A DNA stretch of 64,000 nucleotides. Source: a phage. Made by a program: the position numbers and the translations under genes. Below, one piece after another: positions 18,957 to 35,270 of this stretch (position 1 is its first letter; every line of letters starts with the position of its first letter). The notes under the pieces were generated by a model. That model did not search any database. It was not told the origin of the DNA and worked only from the letters and a program-made list of their open reading frames with translations. The stretch lies in sequence record PZ445440.1; one strand, written 5' to 3'.

Positions 18957-19946
18957 TCATTTATAGTACGAATTGTGGTTTTCTAAGTAGACTTGTTCAA
19001 GGAAGTCATCCCAGAAACTCATATCTACTTTTTGTTGCATACCATTCTTAGCAGCTTGTTCTGCTGCATGTTCAACTTGGTCAACGATATCTTCTAGGAA
19101 TTCCTGTATGGTTTTAAACGTATGTTTACCAAGCTTAACATCGAGAATAAATGGAGCATCCTGAAGCGGGTAAACCAGGTCGCCGGTTTTGTAAATTTCT
19201 AGGAGCTGAAGTCCACCACGGCATGCATGACTCAATGCTTTCCAATCAATACCTTCATTGGCTTCTGCCTTACGAGCACGTTCACCGTAGTTCTCTTCAA
19301 GTTTAACCAGGATGGCATTGAACTCTTTATTGGTTAACGTGTCTTGGAATTTACGGTCCAACAGACTATAGAATGTTTGCTTACCTGTTTTCTCATTTTC
19401 GGTTTCAACCCACGAAGCAAATTCACCTACAGGCAGAACATTCTTCATATGTGATAAACGAATTACTGCACCATTATCAAAGTATCGTCCCCATTCATTA
19501 GAACGTTTAAGGGCTTGACGAAGAACAGCCAGTCGAGAACCCTTGACACCGTATTTAGAAGCTTGCTTACGGACATACCCTAAATAAGATTTCATGTTAG
19601 TGGTATAGAAACGAGACCTGTTATCTTGAATATACTTCCATACATCAGGCAAATCAGATTTAACTACTAGACTTTGTGGAGTGTGAAGCATATCTAATGC
19701 GACGGTTTCACCATCAGCAGCTAGTTTAAAGAAATATTTGAGACTATACAACTCATGGTCCACGTCGTCTTTTGTGTTCTTAGAAGATGTGTTATTCGTG
19801 TTCTTGCTCATGTGTTCTTTAACGTTACCGGTCAAGATATCACGAGCATGAGGGACATAAATTTCTTTAAAATCGACGTCAGATTCAGGAGTAGACGTTC
19901 CATAAAGGTGGCTACCAAAGTAAGCCTTAACAATCGTTTTCATCAT
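18957..19946 (-). CDS. nucleotidyltransferase-fold protein (Pol-beta superfamily motif G-S-x4-G-T-x4-S-D-V-D)
   Basis: 329 aa; N-terminal YFGSHLYGTSTPESDVDF; large helical C-terminal domain; ATG with AAGGC upstream. Confidence 0.75.
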   Translation of the reverse strand: MMKTIVKAYFGSHLYGTSTPESDVDFKEIYVPHARDILTGNVKEHMSKNTNNTSSKNTKDDVDHELYSLKYFFKLAADGETVALDMLHTPQSLVVKSDLPDVWKYIQDNRSRFYTTNMKSYLGYVRKQASKYGVKGSRLAVLRQALKRSNEWGRYFDNGAVIRLSHMKNVLPVGEFASWVETENEKTGKQTFYSLLDRKFQDTLTNKEFNAILVKLEENYGERARKAEANEGIDWKALSHACRGGLQLLEIYKTGDLVYPLQDAPFILDVKLGKHTFKTIQEFLEDIVDQVEHAAEQAAKNGMQQKVDMSFWDDFLEQVYLENHNSYYK

Positions 19947-30065: not shown

Positions 30066-30291
30066 CTCGGTCCCATGATTTGGCCATTAATTCGGACATA
30101 AATTCTTCAATGCGCGTTTCTTTAGATGGACTTTCACTATTAGAGACCGCAAGTTTGTAATCTGCAATAGGACAAAACATATCAAGGTCCATATTAAGAT
30201 CGTCTTTGATTTTTTCTTCTGACACATCTTTATCGTATGTGTACAGATAACTATCACATGATTCTGATTTAATGTAAATTGCTATACTCAT
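30055..30291 (-). CDS. small acidic hypothetical protein
   Basis: ORF track 30055..30306; second ATG has AGGAA upstream. Confidence 0.5.
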   Translation of the reverse strand: MSIAIYIKSESCDSYLYTYDKDVSEEKIKDDLNMDLDMFCPIADYKLAVSNSESPSKETRIEEFMSELMAKSWDRDDE

Positions 30292-30779
30292 CTCAAATTC
30301 CTGCATTCGGTAATAAAACGTTCAACTTCATTATTCTTGGCCTTTATCTTGTCTTTACGTTCCTGTAAACTACTTTTAACAAGATTAATAATGATGCCTA
30401 CAGTACCTCCACCAATGATGCCACCAACAACACTTATGATACTAGATGCTAATAAGATAGCAATAATATCAACAAAACCGAAAGAACTCACCTTAGTACT
30501 AAAAAACCACACTGACGGTACAAATATAATCCATCCTGTTATCCATTGGCACTTATTGAAAAACTTTTCAAGCTCAGCTTGAGTTGTTCGTATTACTTCA
30601 TCGATAGGTTGATATCCATTAATGTATCTGTTCACGATAATACCTGCTGGCTGGTTGATTTTAAATTCTTGGCAAATATGTTTCACTAAGTAGGACGGAC
30701 ATCCTGTCCAATCTACTGAATAATACGAAATACCTTCGTTGCCATCGTCTATATTAGACCAATATGTTTTGTTAATCAT
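30288..30779 (-). CDS. membrane protein (C-terminal TM helices; tail ...FITECR)
   Basis: ORF track; hydrophobic C-terminal half. Confidence 0.65.
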   Translation of the reverse strand: MINKTYWSNIDDGNEGISYYSVDWTGCPSYLVKHICQEFKINQPAGIIVNRYINGYQPIDEVIRTTQAELEKFFNKCQWITGWIIFVPSVWFFSTKVSSFGFVDIIAILLASSIISVVGGIIGGGTVGIIINLVKSSLQERKDKIKAKNNEVERFITECRNLR

Positions 30780-31465
30780 TACCAGCCTTCCATAGGGAAT
30801 TCCAGATAAACTTGGGCATTGACACGAATTTCATTGGTAATCTTTTTAACTCGGTCTGTATTACGAGATACACGTCCGAACCAACGCCATCCGTTACTAA
30901 TTGCACGAGAACCAGTGTGCCATGTTTGCCAATCAAACTGAAGAAGAGTACGGTCTGGAGCTTCCCATTTCTCTAGTTCACCTTTTTCGATTTTTTCGAG
31001 GACTTCTTTGTGCCACTGGCGATAGATAAGTTCGCCATCAGGAATCTGACTGAACTCTGCAGTTCCTGTTGCAAAATGAGTAGGACACACATCAGAGTTA
31101 ACAAGACCAAGAATATGTTCAGAATGGTAACGAGGGTTGTCATAGTCAGGTTGTCCTGCAGTAATAAAGTGTTGACCAACTGGAATATCCGGGCGTGGTA
31201 CATCGTCATGGTGATAACCTGGGATAGCAGGGTACCAACCAGGCATCAGCATGTGGACTCGTGAATCAAATACAACCTGGTCGGTGTTCCAATCATCCGG
31301 CAAGTTCATGATGAAGCTGCGAGTAATAGGACCGCCGTTATTATAAGCAAATTCTAAACTACAGTTAAAGAACATCGGTTCGTTCTTGATTTTATCATTA
31401 GAAATGCTACCGGCAAAACCACCTACTGCACGAGCTTGGCTATTAAACACTTTAGAACTATTCAT
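30779..31465 (-). CDS. hypothetical protein (228 aa, His-rich)
   Basis: ORF track; ATG with GAGGAAAA upstream embedded in the preceding gene's last codons. Confidence 0.7.
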   Translation of the reverse strand: MNSSKVFNSQARAVGGFAGSISNDKIKNEPMFFNCSLEFAYNNGGPITRSFIMNLPDDWNTDQVVFDSRVHMLMPGWYPAIPGYHHDDVPRPDIPVGQHFITAGQPDYDNPRYHSEHILGLVNSDVCPTHFATGTAEFSQIPDGELIYRQWHKEVLEKIEKGELEKWEAPDRTLLQFDWQTWHTGSRAISNGWRWFGRVSRNTDRVKKITNEIRVNAQVYLEFPMEGW

Positions 31466-31466
31466 A

Positions 31467-31772
31467 TTATTTTCCTCGACATTCTTTAATGAAATTTTCT
31501 AGATTGGTAGATTCAATAGCTTTTTTACGAGCTTCTGCGTGTTCTTCTTCGGACAATTTACGTTTATAATTGACCCAGACATTATGGTCTAAACCGGTCG
31601 TGGCATATAATATCAAAGCTCCGACGAATAATAAAAACGGTGATAAAAATATACAACCAGGAACACCATCCATACTGTAAGCCTTTTGTAATACTGCAAC
31701 AGAAAGAGCTGCGTAAAAAAGCGATGCAAATATTGTAAAAAGACCGATTCGGTTGGTTTCGCCTAATTTCAT
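31467..31772 (-). CDS. membrane protein (2 TM; tail ...NFIKECRGK)
   Basis: ORF track; ATG with GAGGAGAA upstream. Confidence 0.65.
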   Translation of the reverse strand: MKLGETNRIGLFTIFASLFYAALSVAVLQKAYSMDGVPGCIFLSPFLLFVGALILYATTGLDHNVWVNYKRKLSEEEHAEARKKAIESTNLENFIKECRGK

Positions 31773-31842: not shown

Positions 31843-32799
31843 TTATTTGAAAGGTTTTACCATATGGAAATTTTGTTTGAAACGTTTGACGTAATCGTCG
31901 TGTCCTAAGCTTTGGTACATACTTACTACTTTGCTGTAGTTTTCCCAGGCATACTCACGGAACCAACCAGAGGTGATGCTTGTACAGACCTTTTCCAATG
32001 CCATCATGAAACTGGCTTCAGGGTTAATTTTAAAGTCATTAGGAATTTGAGAACGTTCTAATGCTAGTACACATGATTCTTCGTATACACCGGCCAGTTT
32101 AATCATTTCTGGTAACGATTCGAACTTCTCGCGTGAGGTCATGACTTCAGAACCGTCTTTCATGTAAAACGTATAAGCCGGACGGTCTGTTAGTGCAATG
32201 GCTTCATGAATAGTATCATGGTCATATGTATAGATGTCATCTTTAAAGAACGCACTTTTAGAAGTGTCAAGAACCGGGTGAGCATAGTTCAAAGTTTCTT
32301 TCTGGCGTTTCAGCATAATTTCAGTAAGTTCATCGTTCAGTGTAACACCTTTACCACGAAGATACTGAATATGGTTCATAGTCTTTAAAAAGAATGGATT
32401 ATTTTTCTTGAAACGGTGAGACATCTTAATTGCAAGACATATCTCAGGAGTTGCCCAGTAAAACCCGGTCAAACGGTCTTTAGTCAAATTTTTCTTGGCG
32501 TATTTTAAAAGGTCATAAGAAGACGTGAAATCTTCAGGAGTGAGTTCACCGACTAGTTCACGGACATTAGTGATTGCCGGAACAATATACGCTTCAAAAT
32601 GAGTTTCGCGTCCATTATGGAAGCATTTGAAAACTTGGACATCAGGGTTATCTTGGTGGACATATACACCCATCATTTGATTTTTGAATGCATTCCAAGA
32701 ACATTGGTCCGCAATAAAGTCCCAATCACTATTTTTGATAGCGCTAGAATCAATAAGACCGTGATAGTGAAGTGCACGAGAACCAATAACTAACAACAT
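31843..32799 (-). CDS. hypothetical protein with nucleotidyltransferase-like N-terminal motif (318 aa)
   Basis: IGSRALHYHGLIDSSAIKNSDWDF resembles the GS...D.D signature; ATG with GAGGAAAA upstream. Confidence 0.7.
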   Translation of the reverse strand: MLLVIGSRALHYHGLIDSSAIKNSDWDFIADQCSWNAFKNQMMGVYVHQDNPDVQVFKCFHNGRETHFEAYIVPAITNVRELVGELTPEDFTSSYDLLKYAKKNLTKDRLTGFYWATPEICLAIKMSHRFKKNNPFFLKTMNHIQYLRGKGVTLNDELTEIMLKRQKETLNYAHPVLDTSKSAFFKDDIYTYDHDTIHEAIALTDRPAYTFYMKDGSEVMTSREKFESLPEMIKLAGVYEESCVLALERSQIPNDFKINPEASFMMALEKVCTSITSGWFREYAWENYSKVVSMYQSLGHDDYVKRFKQNFHMVKPFK

Positions 32800-32827: not shown

Positions 32828-33067
32828 TTAAATTTCACGACATGCGATATCATATTCATCCCAGAGGTCATCATGTGAAGCCTCTACCAATGGAACGATT
32901 GTACCATTTATGTCTTCATTATAAGGGCAAATTGTACAGTGCGCATCTTCGAATCGGATGCCTTTGTGTTCAGATTTTTTATAACGCATATCGAATATCT
33001 TTGCAAACTTTTCACGAGTAATGGTTTTACCAACCACTTTGGTTCCGATACTTTCGTAATAAATCAT
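32828..33067 (-). CDS. hypothetical protein (79 aa, Cys/His-containing)
   Basis: ORF track 32828..33079; second ATG in ATGGAGAACAAAATG leader. Confidence 0.6.
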   Translation of the reverse strand: MIYYESIGTKVVGKTITREKFAKIFDMRYKKSEHKGIRFEDAHCTICPYNEDINGTIVPLVEASHDDLWDEYDIACREI

Positions 33068-33129
33068 TTTGTTCTCCATTTGTTTTGATAGGACTACTAT
33101 AACATAGCCCTATCTTGTTGTAAACTGTT

Positions 33130-33327
33130 TTAGCAAGAATAACTAGATGATACCCAGCCTTGAACAGTGATACTATTGTGGGATAATGAGATCGCGTCCT
33201 GGAGATTCAGACCTGCGTTATCTTCAATCCATAATGTAACTTCTTCGCGTTCTTCTGTTGCAATTTGGAACAGGTTTTCTAGAGCAGCTACTGCGGTACG
33301 TACAGCACAATCTAATTCACGAGACAT
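33130..33327 (-). CDS. small acidic protein, paralog family member (C-terminus GWVSSSYSC)
   Basis: ORF track; AAGGAAA upstream. Confidence 0.6.
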   Translation of the reverse strand: MSRELDCAVRTAVAALENLFQIATEEREEVTLWIEDNAGLNLQDAISLSHNSITVQGWVSSSYSC

Positions 33328-33336
33328 ATGGTTTCC

Positions 33337-33609
33337 TTAGCAAGTGTGAGAAGATGCAACCCAACCGCCATCTTCAAGGCTCAGGTTGTAGTCGTATTGG
33401 TAAACGTCAGCCCATTCAGCATAGCCGTTTTTTGTACAACGTTCAAGATCGGCTTTAAGATGTCCGGGTGAATGATAGGTTCCACCCATACCATAAGCTG
33501 GATACAAGTCGAATGTTGTGTTTTGTTTATCAGCAATTTCTTTGGCAGCCTCAATAGCTGCATAGATTTTTGCTACAGCTTCGGCCAGTTCGGTTTGTTC
33601 TTTAGACAT
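33337..33609 (-). CDS. small acidic protein, paralog family member (C-terminus GGWVASSHTC)
   Basis: ORF track; AAGGAA upstream. Confidence 0.6.
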   Translation of the reverse strand: MSKEQTELAEAVAKIYAAIEAAKEIADKQNTTFDLYPAYGMGGTYHSPGHLKADLERCTKNGYAEWADVYQYDYNLSLEDGGWVASSHTC

Positions 33610-33618
33610 AATGATTCC

Positions 33619-33924
33619 TTAGCACAACGCAGAAGACGAAACCCAAGCACCTTCAGTAATAACGTAACCATTACCTTCACGCTTAACATCACCACCATTA
33701 TTTTCAATTTCATCTTTCATCCACTGGGATACGATTTCACCCTTAGGATAATAAGTACGTCCGCTACCATAATCACCTACAGAAAATGATACGGCATATT
33801 GGTCTGCGATCTTTGTTGCTTCTTCTTCGATACGTTCAGCTTGATTCAGAAGTTTATAAATTGCATCTGAAGCGGATTTGGCATCATTAAACTCTGGTAC
33901 TTTAATTTCAATAATCTTACTCAT
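33619..33924 (-). CDS. small acidic protein, paralog family member (C-terminus GAWVSSSALC)
   Basis: ORF track; ATGA overlap with upstream gene. Confidence 0.6.
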   Translation of the reverse strand: MSKIIEIKVPEFNDAKSASDAIYKLLNQAERIEEEATKIADQYAVSFSVGDYGSGRTYYPKGEIVSQWMKDEIENNGGDVKREGNGYVITEGAWVSSSALC

Positions 33925-34280
33925 TTTCTACATTCCTTAATAAAGTTTTCGATTGTTTCATTTTCACGTTTAGCTAGAAGTTCATTATAACTAATCATTT
34001 GAGAAGCGTAAACCTTTTTATTTTTCTTGTTATGGTTTATAAAATCGTAGTAAAAATAGACTACAGTACAAAATGATGCGATGGATGCAAAGGCTTGGGT
34101 ATACCGTAAGTCCTGCCATTGGTCTGTGAATCCACCGGTATTCCCTATAAATCCTAACACAACTCCGTCAATAAGAAATCCAACTAATCCAAAGGCAAAT
34201 CCCATGCCAATACTCATAATAAAAATTAAAATATTCTCACCAAGAGAAGGCCATACGGTTAAGAGTTGAGGCTTTTGCAT
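33921..34280 (-). CDS. membrane protein (tail ...ENFIKECRK)
   Basis: ORF track; hydrophobic helices. Confidence 0.65.
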   Translation of the reverse strand: MQKPQLLTVWPSLGENILIFIMSIGMGFAFGLVGFLIDGVVLGFIGNTGGFTDQWQDLRYTQAFASIASFCTVVYFYYDFINHNKKNKKVYASQMISYNELLAKRENETIENFIKECRK

Positions 34281-34654
34281 CTTATTTCCTTAACGAATTC
34301 CATAGCTTCTTCATATTCATACTTTTTAACAGCTTCATCATACTGAGCTTGGGCTTTTGCGCACTGAACTTTCCACTCGCGAACTCGAGCTCTGTGATGA
34401 CGGCCTTGGTGCCAATATCCTGCCCAATTAATAGGCATTAATAAAAACGGTACAATAAGTGGTGCGACGAACATTAATGAAAACGCTGCATCAGACGATA
34501 TAACTTTATTGGAATCTAAAATAGCTCCTATAATCATAAAGATTAAAAATGCTAAAGCTAAAATAGGGCCAAATAGTACTTCGTTTGGGATTAATTTACG
34601 TTTGTATTCGTATGCCCAGGGCTTAATTGGCATGTACAGGGTTGGCTTTGACAT
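34259..34654 (-). CDS. membrane protein (start uncertain)
   Basis: ORF track 34259..34684 begins with TTG; internal ATGs at 34654 or 34633. Confidence 0.5.
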   Translation of the reverse strand: MSKPTLYMPIKPWAYEYKRKLIPNEVLFGPILALAFLIFMIIGAILDSNKVISSDAAFSLMFVAPLIVPFLLMPINWAGYWHQGRHHRARVREWKVQCAKAQAQYDEAVKKYEYEEAMEFVKEIRCKSLNS

Positions 34655-35225
34655 ATTCTCTACATTCCATAATAAATTGCTCAAGGATTAAATTGTTAGT
34701 GAAATTAGGACTAACAACCATAGTTTCATAAAGCGCATCAATAGCACTTAAAGCATCAACTCTTTTAAGCAAAGGCTTGCCTTCATACATAGTTTCAGAA
34801 TCGACGATTAACGTAAAGTAATATTTTTTATTATCGACTAGAACTTCTGTGTCGATATAAAACATATTAGACCTCAGAAGCTTATCTCTAAAACCATAAT
34901 AATCTTCTGAACGTTCGCTGATATATTCCCATTCAGTGTTTAAACAACAAACAGACCACGTAGGAGCAACGAAATCAGTGAATCTAATATCATGGTCTGC
35001 AACTAGTTTAGCAATAGCTCCGATATCATGAATCATAATACCTGGGGCTAATAAAGATTTTCTGCTATGGCTAGCCGTTTTCTCAGTGGTCTCATAAGAA
35101 GCCGACCAGTACCATTTACGTCCGGTTGCAACATATCGTAATGAATCAACTAAAGACGTAGGTGGATTTACCTTATCTCGGAACTCTTCGAACATTGAGT
35201 CAATATCATTATTTTGGTTTCGCAT
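34623..35225 (-). CDS. hypothetical protein (200 aa; tail ...QFIMECREYV)
   Basis: ORF track 34623..35246; ATG 35225 with AGGAG upstream. Confidence 0.65.
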   Translation of the reverse strand: MRNQNNDIDSMFEEFRDKVNPPTSLVDSLRYVATGRKWYWSASYETTEKTASHSRKSLLAPGIMIHDIGAIAKLVADHDIRFTDFVAPTWSVCCLNTEWEYISERSEDYYGFRDKLLRSNMFYIDTEVLVDNKKYYFTLIVDSETMYEGKPLLKRVDALSAIDALYETMVVSPNFTNNLILEQFIMECREYVKANPVHAN

Positions 35226-35242
35226 GTTAACTCCTTTATCAT

Positions 35243-35270
35243 CCAAAAGGAGGACCGGAGTCCTCCGTAT
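35243..35270 (-). terminator. intrinsic terminator (GGAGGAC-tccg-GTCCTCC + TTTT)
   Basis: Perfect 7-bp stem plus T-run on minus strand. Confidence 0.55.

Follow-up and report, generated by a model that had tools for sequence, protein, structure and literature searches.

The gene at positions 31843..32799 (minus strand) of phage sequence record PZ445440.1, analysed here as a window of 64,000 nucleotides, encodes a 318-aa protein that starts MLLVIGSRALHYHGLIDSSAIKNSDWDF in the open reading frame (ORF) list and its translation. The initial annotation had read it as a nucleotidyltransferase (NTase)-like gene with a looser GS...D.D signature. The window is 100% identical to Escherichia phage ChristianSchoenbein (Bas46, MZ501056.1), an RB69-like member of Mosigvirus. 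The annotated counterparts of the coding sequence (CDS) are bas46_0227 in that record (100% identity) and RB69ORF134c in RB69, and both are labelled hypothetical protein. A Shine-Dalgarno-like GAGGAA sequence lies 8 nt 5' of the ATG. Our analysis supports the NTase call and ties the gene to three small acidic proteins encoded upstream of it, which share a C-terminal tail of the form W-x-S-S-S-x-x-C. The features of the locus are as follows.

31843..32799, minus strand: CDS of the 318-aa two-domain protein, an ATG-to-stop ORF (stop codon included; bas46_0227; phrog_2141, E=1.5e-149).
32485..32799, minus strand: predicted N-terminal Pol-beta-type nucleotidyltransferase domain, aa 1-105, which carries G6-S7, D25-x-D27 and E69.
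31885..32448, minus strand: C-terminal all-helical domain, aa 118-305 (Pfam DUF7275, aa 120-305).
32828..33079, minus strand: 83-aa ORF between the tail-motif ORFs and the enzyme gene (phrog_3723, unknown function).
33130..33327, minus strand: tail-motif protein 1, 65 aa, ending GWVSSSYSC-stop (bas46_0229; phrog_4882; isoelectric point, pI, 4.2).
33337..33609, minus strand: tail-motif protein 2, 90 aa, ending GGWVASSHTC-stop (bas46_0230).
33619..33924, minus strand: tail-motif protein 3, 101 aa, ending GAWVSSSALC-stop (bas46_0231).

Pfam divides the 318-aa protein into DUF7277 (aa 3-101, E=6.7e-27) and DUF7275 (aa 120-305, E=3.8e-79), with nothing else at E<=1, and PHROGs places it in phrog_2141, function unknown. 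Searches of Pfam, PHROGs, NCBIfam, PADLOC and PDB sequences, by phmmer and with a family profile, returned only these two Pfam families and phrog_2141, and no weak Pfam match recurred over 57 family members at E<=10. An NCBIfam hisJ match (E=0.002, far under the cut-off) and a PsaB match (E=0.056) were taken as chance. Within the N-terminal domain, G6-S7 is followed by 17 residues and then by D25-W-D27, a longer spacer than the 9-13 residues of the classical GS-to-DxD arrangement, and the spacing had rightly been called atypical. DUF1814 toxins likewise have a long spacer, of 15 residues (PMC3985639).

Conservation was measured on an alignment of 263 family sequences with 35-98% identity to the query. 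G6 is kept in 260 of these, S7 in 255, A9 in 253, D25 in 259 (with E in two more) and D27 in 262, while position 69 is E in 246 and D in 13. The remainder of the N-terminal domain is weakly conserved (mean top-residue frequency 0.26), and divergent 250-aa homologs from Vibrio phage KVP40, Gordonia phage Toniann and Streptomyces phage Muntaha retain G6, S7, D25 and D27. Conservation of the signature is well beyond chance, and the alignment shows that the putative catalytic motif in the DUF7277 head is under selection. That the residues predicted to bind metal and nucleoside triphosphate (NTP) alone are held in an otherwise drifting domain marks an active Pol-beta-type NTase, and we infer on these grounds that the head is probably enzymatic.

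The predicted structure agrees. An AlphaFold2 model built from a 45-sequence alignment (predicted local distance difference test, pLDDT, 92.5; predicted template modelling score, pTM, 0.86) has the alpha/beta NTase core fold of the Pol-beta superfamily. V4-I5-G6-S7 forms the h-G-[GS] turn at the junction of predicted strand 2-5 and helix 6-12, D25-W-D27 opens predicted strand 26-31 as the [DE]-h-[DE] metal pair, and E69, within predicted strand 64-73, is the likely third carboxylate, judging from sequence order and secondary structure. Foldseek ranked 5uvd and MenT1 first, followed by Cid1, Pol X and Pol mu, with CCA-type tRNA-processing enzymes (3wfp and related entries) and OAS1 among the lower matches. 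The nearest structural relatives of the enzyme are MenT1, MenT3 and MenT4, and also ANT(2'') and Lnu. Because model and search both match Pol-beta NTases, the call made from the letters stands. The modelled fold shows the protein to be a member of the Pol-beta nucleotidyltransferase superfamily and, as modelled, the enzyme is a new, structurally distinct branch of it.

The C-terminal two thirds, DUF7275, is very highly conserved. Invariant or near-invariant positions there are K125, H128, R129, K139, T140, R165, D193-H194-D195 and H198, and further along E240-E241, E248-R249, K270 and a TSITSG-x-F-R stretch. This is a large conserved second domain of unassigned fold class, for which no counterpart was found among solved structures. 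An HD-domain phosphohydrolase, suggested by the order H128...H194-D195...E240/E241, was considered and rejected, an HD fold or metal site being recognisable neither by profile nor by structure. More of the protein's conservation lies in this domain than in the NTase head, which would suit a pseudo-enzyme or a pure binding protein that keeps the NTase scaffold without catalysis. We consider this decidedly improbable, because the conservation that the N-terminal domain does have falls almost only on the metal- and NTP-binding G, S, D, D and E, a pattern expected only if catalysis is selected.

A further NTase gene of the window had been taken for a paralog of this one.

18957..19946, minus strand: NrdC.11-like NTase of the RlaP family, 329 aa, outside the system proposed below (PF10127, E=4.6e-13; phrog_388, 'nucleotidyltransferase').

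The two proteins are of similar size, as had been said (318 and 329 aa, both real ORFs), occur in the same phage and both belong to the Pol-beta superfamily, but their pairwise comparison found no detectable sequence similarity (BLASTP E=5.6; hhalign with the family profile, probability 0.1%). The 318-aa protein has no PF10127 match at E<=1, the two fall in different Pfam and PHROG families, and the family profile, run against all six frames of the window, recovered a single copy, the gene itself. T4 nrdC.11, annotated as a nucleotidyltransferase, occupies the syntenic place beside nrdC.10, whereas the 318-aa gene is not found in T4. A recent paralogy is therefore not supported, and the two enzymes have at most the superfamily fold in common, their likeness being confined to the generic motif. 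That the 318-aa gene is a recent paralog of the 18957..19946 NTase, belonging to a family that is diversifying in the most variable region of the phage, is a very improbable account; it could appeal to the common superfamily, the close lengths and a location in a block that T4 lacks, and it runs against both the sequence divergence just described and the selection and synteny described next. In many GenBank and UniRef records the NrdC.11-type NTase is called 'thioredoxin', a label that was probably carried over wrongly from the gene name nrdC.11.

In RB69 the gene lies within a block, RB69ORF132c-139c, inserted between the T4-like e.2 and e.3. T4 is without this block, and neither a six-frame hmmsearch of its whole genome with the family profile nor tblastn found a family homolog; a tblastn match in T4 nrdA (E=0.017) was taken as chance. 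Among T-even phages the gene is thus present in RB69, Mosigvirus, Mosugukvirus and Kanagawavirus and absent in T4. Its position near nudE/e is retained in Mosugukvirus and Kanagawavirus, it is syntenic in the three Tevenvirinae genera checked, and it is 65-98% identical across Tevenvirinae genera. Against RB69 the ratio of non-synonymous to synonymous substitution rates (dN/dS) is 0.046, with 4 non-synonymous and 20 synonymous differences, and copies with a protein identity of 95% or more occur in about 140 records. The description of the locus as a 'hyperplastic island' therefore fits the region, which is variable between T4 and RB69, and does not extend to the gene, a stable resident under strong purifying selection rather than one of a diversifying enzyme family. 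Two genes downstream of the enzyme in Mosigvirus is a His/Asp/Trp-rich 228-aa ORF (30779..31465, minus strand; RB69ORF132c, phrog_1843, no Pfam match); ORFs of 687 and 714 bp stand at the equivalent place in Mosugukvirus and Kanagawavirus, matched by position alone.

Beyond these genera, tblastn placed the family in 734 of 50,697 phage records. Identity to the query is about 95-100% in Mosigvirus and 40-75% in many other Straboviridae genera, and carriers extend to Phapecoctavirus, Otagovirus, Menderavirus and Streptomyces and Gordonia phages; they include RB69, phages of the BASEL collection, and Acinetobacter, Klebsiella, Aeromonas, Pseudomonas and Stenotrophomonas phages. When 1.84 billion representative proteins were searched with the profile, 1,608 clusters (50% identity) came up, 1,271 of them at E<=1e-10, and nearly all of the 1,608 have a length near 300 aa and the same pair of domains. 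In the representative genomes of 185,579 species of bacteria and archaea only five loci turned up, all on contigs of uncultured genomes (metagenome-assembled genomes, MAGs). The family is essentially phage-restricted, and it is annotated 'hypothetical' almost everywhere, with 'putative nucleotidyltransferase' in a few GenBank records.

The neighbourhood of the enzyme was compared across 97 loci: 80 from IMG/VR with 10-kb flanks (the best-scoring of 174), GenBank phage loci and four MAG contigs. Enzymes were clustered at 60% identity, each cluster counting as a lineage, which gave 28 lineages. In unsupervised clustering of neighbouring ORFs, by far the top recurrent neighbour was a family of small ORFs just upstream of the enzyme (14 lineages, 77 loci, median offset -825 bp). 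With a strict tail motif, W-x(0-2)-[SAPNGT]-S-S-x-x-C-stop, we counted 175 ORFs on the enzyme's strand in the 97 loci, at 0-4 copies per locus, and 173 of them fall between -3 kb and +0.5 kb relative to the gene. The controls gave four ORFs on the opposite strand, 2 of 31,991 ORFs in reversed sequences and none of 2,387 ORFs in T4; in the window, 3 of 949 ORFs match, all adjoining the enzyme gene. The strict motif stands beside the gene in 19 of the 28 lineages, or in 23 when close variants directly upstream (W-H-S-S-N-C, W-D-S-S-T-C, W-D-G-S-S-C and W-E-S-S-E-S-S-E-C) are counted.

The tail-motif proteins are 41-159 aa long (median 86) with a median pI of 4.4, and their bodies upstream of the tail are varied. 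The Ser positions of the tail are encoded by TCT, TCC, TCA and TCG as well as by AGT and AGC, the Cys by TGC (90) and TGT (47), and all three stop codons are used; this mixture of codons indicates that the tail is conserved at the protein level. A Gly-rich pair ahead of the tail Trp is enriched, although the search pattern did not demand Gly. The linkage between the enzyme gene and the tail proteins is thus tight, with protein-level selection on the tail. One apparent fusion of tail protein and enzyme (P0225, 377 aa; L009 107..1240) was rejected as an artefact of the source's gene caller, which had read through a stop codon: under table 11, a small ORF at that locus ends WNSSGGPACW-stop just ahead of the LLIGSG start region of the enzyme.

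The three tail proteins of the window are 30-34% identical to one another and have an N-terminal helix and the tail in common. Homologs of the 90-aa protein occur in 281 phage records, and all 40 listed are from T4-like phages of the enterobacterial hosts Escherichia, Klebsiella, Enterobacter, Citrobacter and Yersinia; several of the records also carry the enzyme. A homology search with the same protein gave 15 matches and no Pfam domain, by a method that does not reach such short divergent proteins. The 83-aa ORF ends LWDEYDIACREI, in which W and C align with the tail motif and Ser-Ser is absent, and it may be a degenerate relative of the tail-motif proteins. In RB69 (AY303349.1, L017 1375..1681) the 101-aa protein corresponds to two short annotated ORFs, ORF139c and ORF138c, and the tail there is WVSSPALC, with Pro for Ser; one of the three tail-protein copies may be decaying there.

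The tail linkage points to a protein-tagging system. We put at close to an even chance, or slightly under it, the interpretation that a catalytically competent, phage-specific NTase works with the small acidic proteins by modifying their shared W-x-S-S-S-x-x-C-COOH tail. The DUF7277 head, with its G-S, D-x-D and E, would bind NTP and Mg2+, and DUF7275 would most likely provide substrate recognition and extra active-site residues, probably by binding the tail. A nucleotidyl or other phosphodiester-linked group would then pass from a nucleotide donor to a hydroxyl of the Ser-Ser(-Ser) run, and one enzyme could in this way tag several phage proteins post-translationally. That the tails are substrates rather than regulators, which residue is modified and what group is transferred are all inferred within this scheme. 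It is tempting to speculate further that this is a hitherto unrecognised tagging system of large lytic phages, in which the NTase-DUF7275 enzyme chemically modifies the common tail of several otherwise different small acidic proteins; as a whole this fuller proposal is tentative and on the unlikely side. The modified tail protein might be the active form, for example in host take-over or counter-defence. The chemistry could be Ser nucleotidylylation, perhaps with elimination as a next step and then attack by the terminal Cys, forming a ring like that of lanthionine or aminovinyl-cysteine (AviCys), or it could be the attachment of a nucleotide-derived prosthetic group.

Enzymes of this fold are known to act on proteins. 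MntA AMPylates a toxin, HepT, and CitX/MdcG load small acidic acyl-carrier proteins, at a Ser, with a prosthetic group derived from a nucleotide. The target of PsmN is the phospho-Ser at the C-terminus of a lasso peptide (PMC9266682), MenT3 is phosphorylated at the catalytic-site Ser78 (PMC10435456), and MenT-family toxins are reported to be under the control of auto-phosphorylation (PMC11375011). Together these are precedents for NTase-fold enzymes that work on protein or peptide residues.

Several observations weigh against the tagging interpretation, among them those that speak for two other kinds of substrate and are given with them below. No adjacent tail ORF accompanies the enzyme in 5 of the 28 lineages, including those with the three short, most divergent homologs. 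The motif pattern was defined after the data had been seen, and many loci come from related phages, so that ORF counts overstate independence and 19-23 of 28 lineages is the fairer figure. In the window, a promoter-like site and the 83-aa ORF separate the tail ORFs from the enzyme gene, and such sites are not in excess in the region (13 promoter-like sites found against 10.8 expected in shuffled sequence, and terminator-like sites likewise without excess), so that they speak neither for nor against co-transcription. Finally, the link between enzyme and tails is a genomic one only.

The structural ranking itself favours a different reading, in which the enzyme is an RNA 3'-end NTase like MenT/AbiEii that would add nucleotides to the acceptor ends of tRNA or to other RNA 3' ends, in host shut-off or in tRNA repair or modification, with the small proteins either antitoxin-like inhibitors, as MenA1 is of MenT1, or unrelated. 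The substrates of the enzyme's closest structural relatives, MenT1, MenT3 and MenT4, are tRNA 3' ends, and MenA/MenT pairs typically have a small gene upstream of the NTase. We nevertheless regard this as unlikely, without being far-fetched. Pfam gives the target no AbiEii/DUF1814 match at E<=1, and this family is absent from those listed at E<=10 for 57 members; there is also no PADLOC match, and no Pfam or PHROG tie of the small upstream ORFs to antitoxins. The partners, at one to four in tandem with varied bodies and one invariant tail, are more readily seen as several substrates than as one antitoxin. The enzyme is acidic to neutral (pI 6.5 here, family median 6.2), and even a mildly acidic pI is unusual for a tRNA binder. 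As for tRNA genes, aragorn, run on the 97 loci, found proximity only in the Tevenvirinae-like group and four other loci (L011, L023, L091 and L094), and most lineages outside that group have no tRNA within 10 kb; a general tRNA linkage was rejected, the proximity reflecting shared synteny. In Shewanella phage Thanatos-1 (L023 4004..5106) the homolog ends 10-14 bp before tRNA-Arg(TCT) and tRNA-Met, and in Gordonia phage Toniann (L011 2809..4937) it lies 1.25 kb upstream of a tRNA cluster.

DUF1814 toxins have, after the core, a motif III KLxAaxxR and a motif IV +DxxD (PMC3985639). By sequence order and secondary structure, motif III may be compared with the invariant K125 and with H128-R129 four residues after it, and motif IV with K139-T140-M-x-143, which has the +DxxD spacing with its first D replaced by T140. 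Position 143 is D in 186 of the 263 sequences and H in 66, as it is in this phage, so that motif IV appears degenerate, and D-x-D stands here where MenT1, MenT3, MenT4 and AbiEii have S/T-x-D, the MenT Ser/Thr position (T39, S78) being Asp. Also unlike those enzymes, which are DUF1814 NTase toxins of type IV/VII toxin-antitoxin and abortive-infection systems, the present family has an extra, highly conserved helical region of about 170 residues without a structural relative, is phage-encoded and essentially absent from cellular genomes, and is partnered by tail-motif proteins rather than by AbiEi or MenA homologs.

A small-molecule NTase of the ANT(2'')/Lnu type would place a nucleotidyl group on a hydroxyl, whether of an anti-phage metabolite resembling an antibiotic, of a signalling molecule or of a cofactor precursor, and the small proteins would be unrelated to it. 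The structural relatives ANT(2'') and Lnu do act on small molecules and not on proteins, which counts against the tagging interpretation. We find the small-molecule explanation fairly improbable, since it leaves the linkage to the tail-motif ORFs unexplained and since the enzyme belongs to none of the corresponding sequence families. Moreover, DUF7275, of 200 residues, far exceeds the helical lobes of ANT and Lnu in both size and conservation and has no structural match. Compared with ANT(2'')-Ia (AadB) and LnuA/LinB, there is no sequence similarity, the C-terminal domain is much larger, and the genes are confined to lytic phages, outside any resistance context.

Other genes near the enzyme also deserve mention. 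Genes related to nicotinamide adenine dinucleotide (NAD) lie within a few kb of it: Nampt-like in six lineages, Prs-like in three and Sir2 in three, with DprA/SLOG-like genes in five. NAD-related neighbours are seen at Acj9 (Acinetobacter; L022 5783..8437), Ps15 (Stenotrophomonas; L021 1..675), KVP40 (L010 5555..6295) and ZCKP1 (L003 8203..9003), and in the window nudE is 1.8 kb downstream of the enzyme. This proximity could simply be accessory-gene clustering. Immediately downstream of the enzyme in four lineages (median offset +334 bp) is a calcineurin-like metallophosphoesterase (GDVHG…GDLVDRG…GNHE; L075 2416..3288 and 15 other loci), which is a candidate for trimming or removing a phosphodiester-linked modification.

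Around the enzyme gene, five neighbouring minus-strand ORFs (30288..30779, 31467..31772, 33921..34280, 34259..34684 and 34623..35246) end in a second kind of tail, F-I/V-K/T-E-C/I-R: in that order, NFIKECRGK, RFITECRNLR, NFIKECRK, FVKEIRCKSLNS and QFIMECREY…. Four of them are the counterparts of RB69 e.2, e.3, e.4 and e.5 (e.2-e.4 being predicted membrane proteins), and 31467..31772 is that of RB69ORF133c. This tail family is distinct from W-x-S-S-S-x-x-C, and either a protein function or a recombination or translational-coupling cassette could account for it.

In the literature library searched we found no paper that mentions DUF7275, DUF7277 or RB69ORF134c, nor one that links phage NTases to such tails, and the module of enzyme and tail proteins appears to be undescribed. 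Assignment to a conserved NTase gives a biochemical handle on a large family that is mostly called hypothetical, and the linkage joins two gene sets of unknown function in one hypothesis, as enzyme and as substrates or partners. Should the tails turn out to be modified, the locus would represent a new type of protein modification encoded by phages, and its eight-residue tail would be a portable tag for a single enzyme. If the enzyme is instead MenT-like, phages would carry a tRNA-end-modifying enzyme whose regulator is of a new kind. Either outcome bears on the conflict between phage and host.

Among known systems, two groups invite comparison with the proposed tagging of tails by the NTase. 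A Ser run two to three residues before a C-terminal Cys is the arrangement that yields lanthionine or AviCys rings, and the tails share this Ser...Cys arrangement near the C-terminus with the precursors of lanthipeptides and AviCys peptides, which are peptides made on ribosomes and modified after translation (RiPPs). The tails here end proteins of 41-159 aa and not leader-core peptides, and scans of the enzyme and of six ORFs near it turned up no LanB-, LanM-, LanKC-, LanC- or LanD-like domain; a link to lanthionine or AviCys chemistry is speculative and by analogy. MntA, CitX/MdcG and PsmN resemble the system in proposed mechanism only, and several substrates with a common C-terminal W-x-S-S-S-x-x-C tail have no known parallel among them. 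What they would have in common with the phage locus described here is an NTase-fold enzyme encoded beside a small protein or peptide whose Ser or Tyr is modified.

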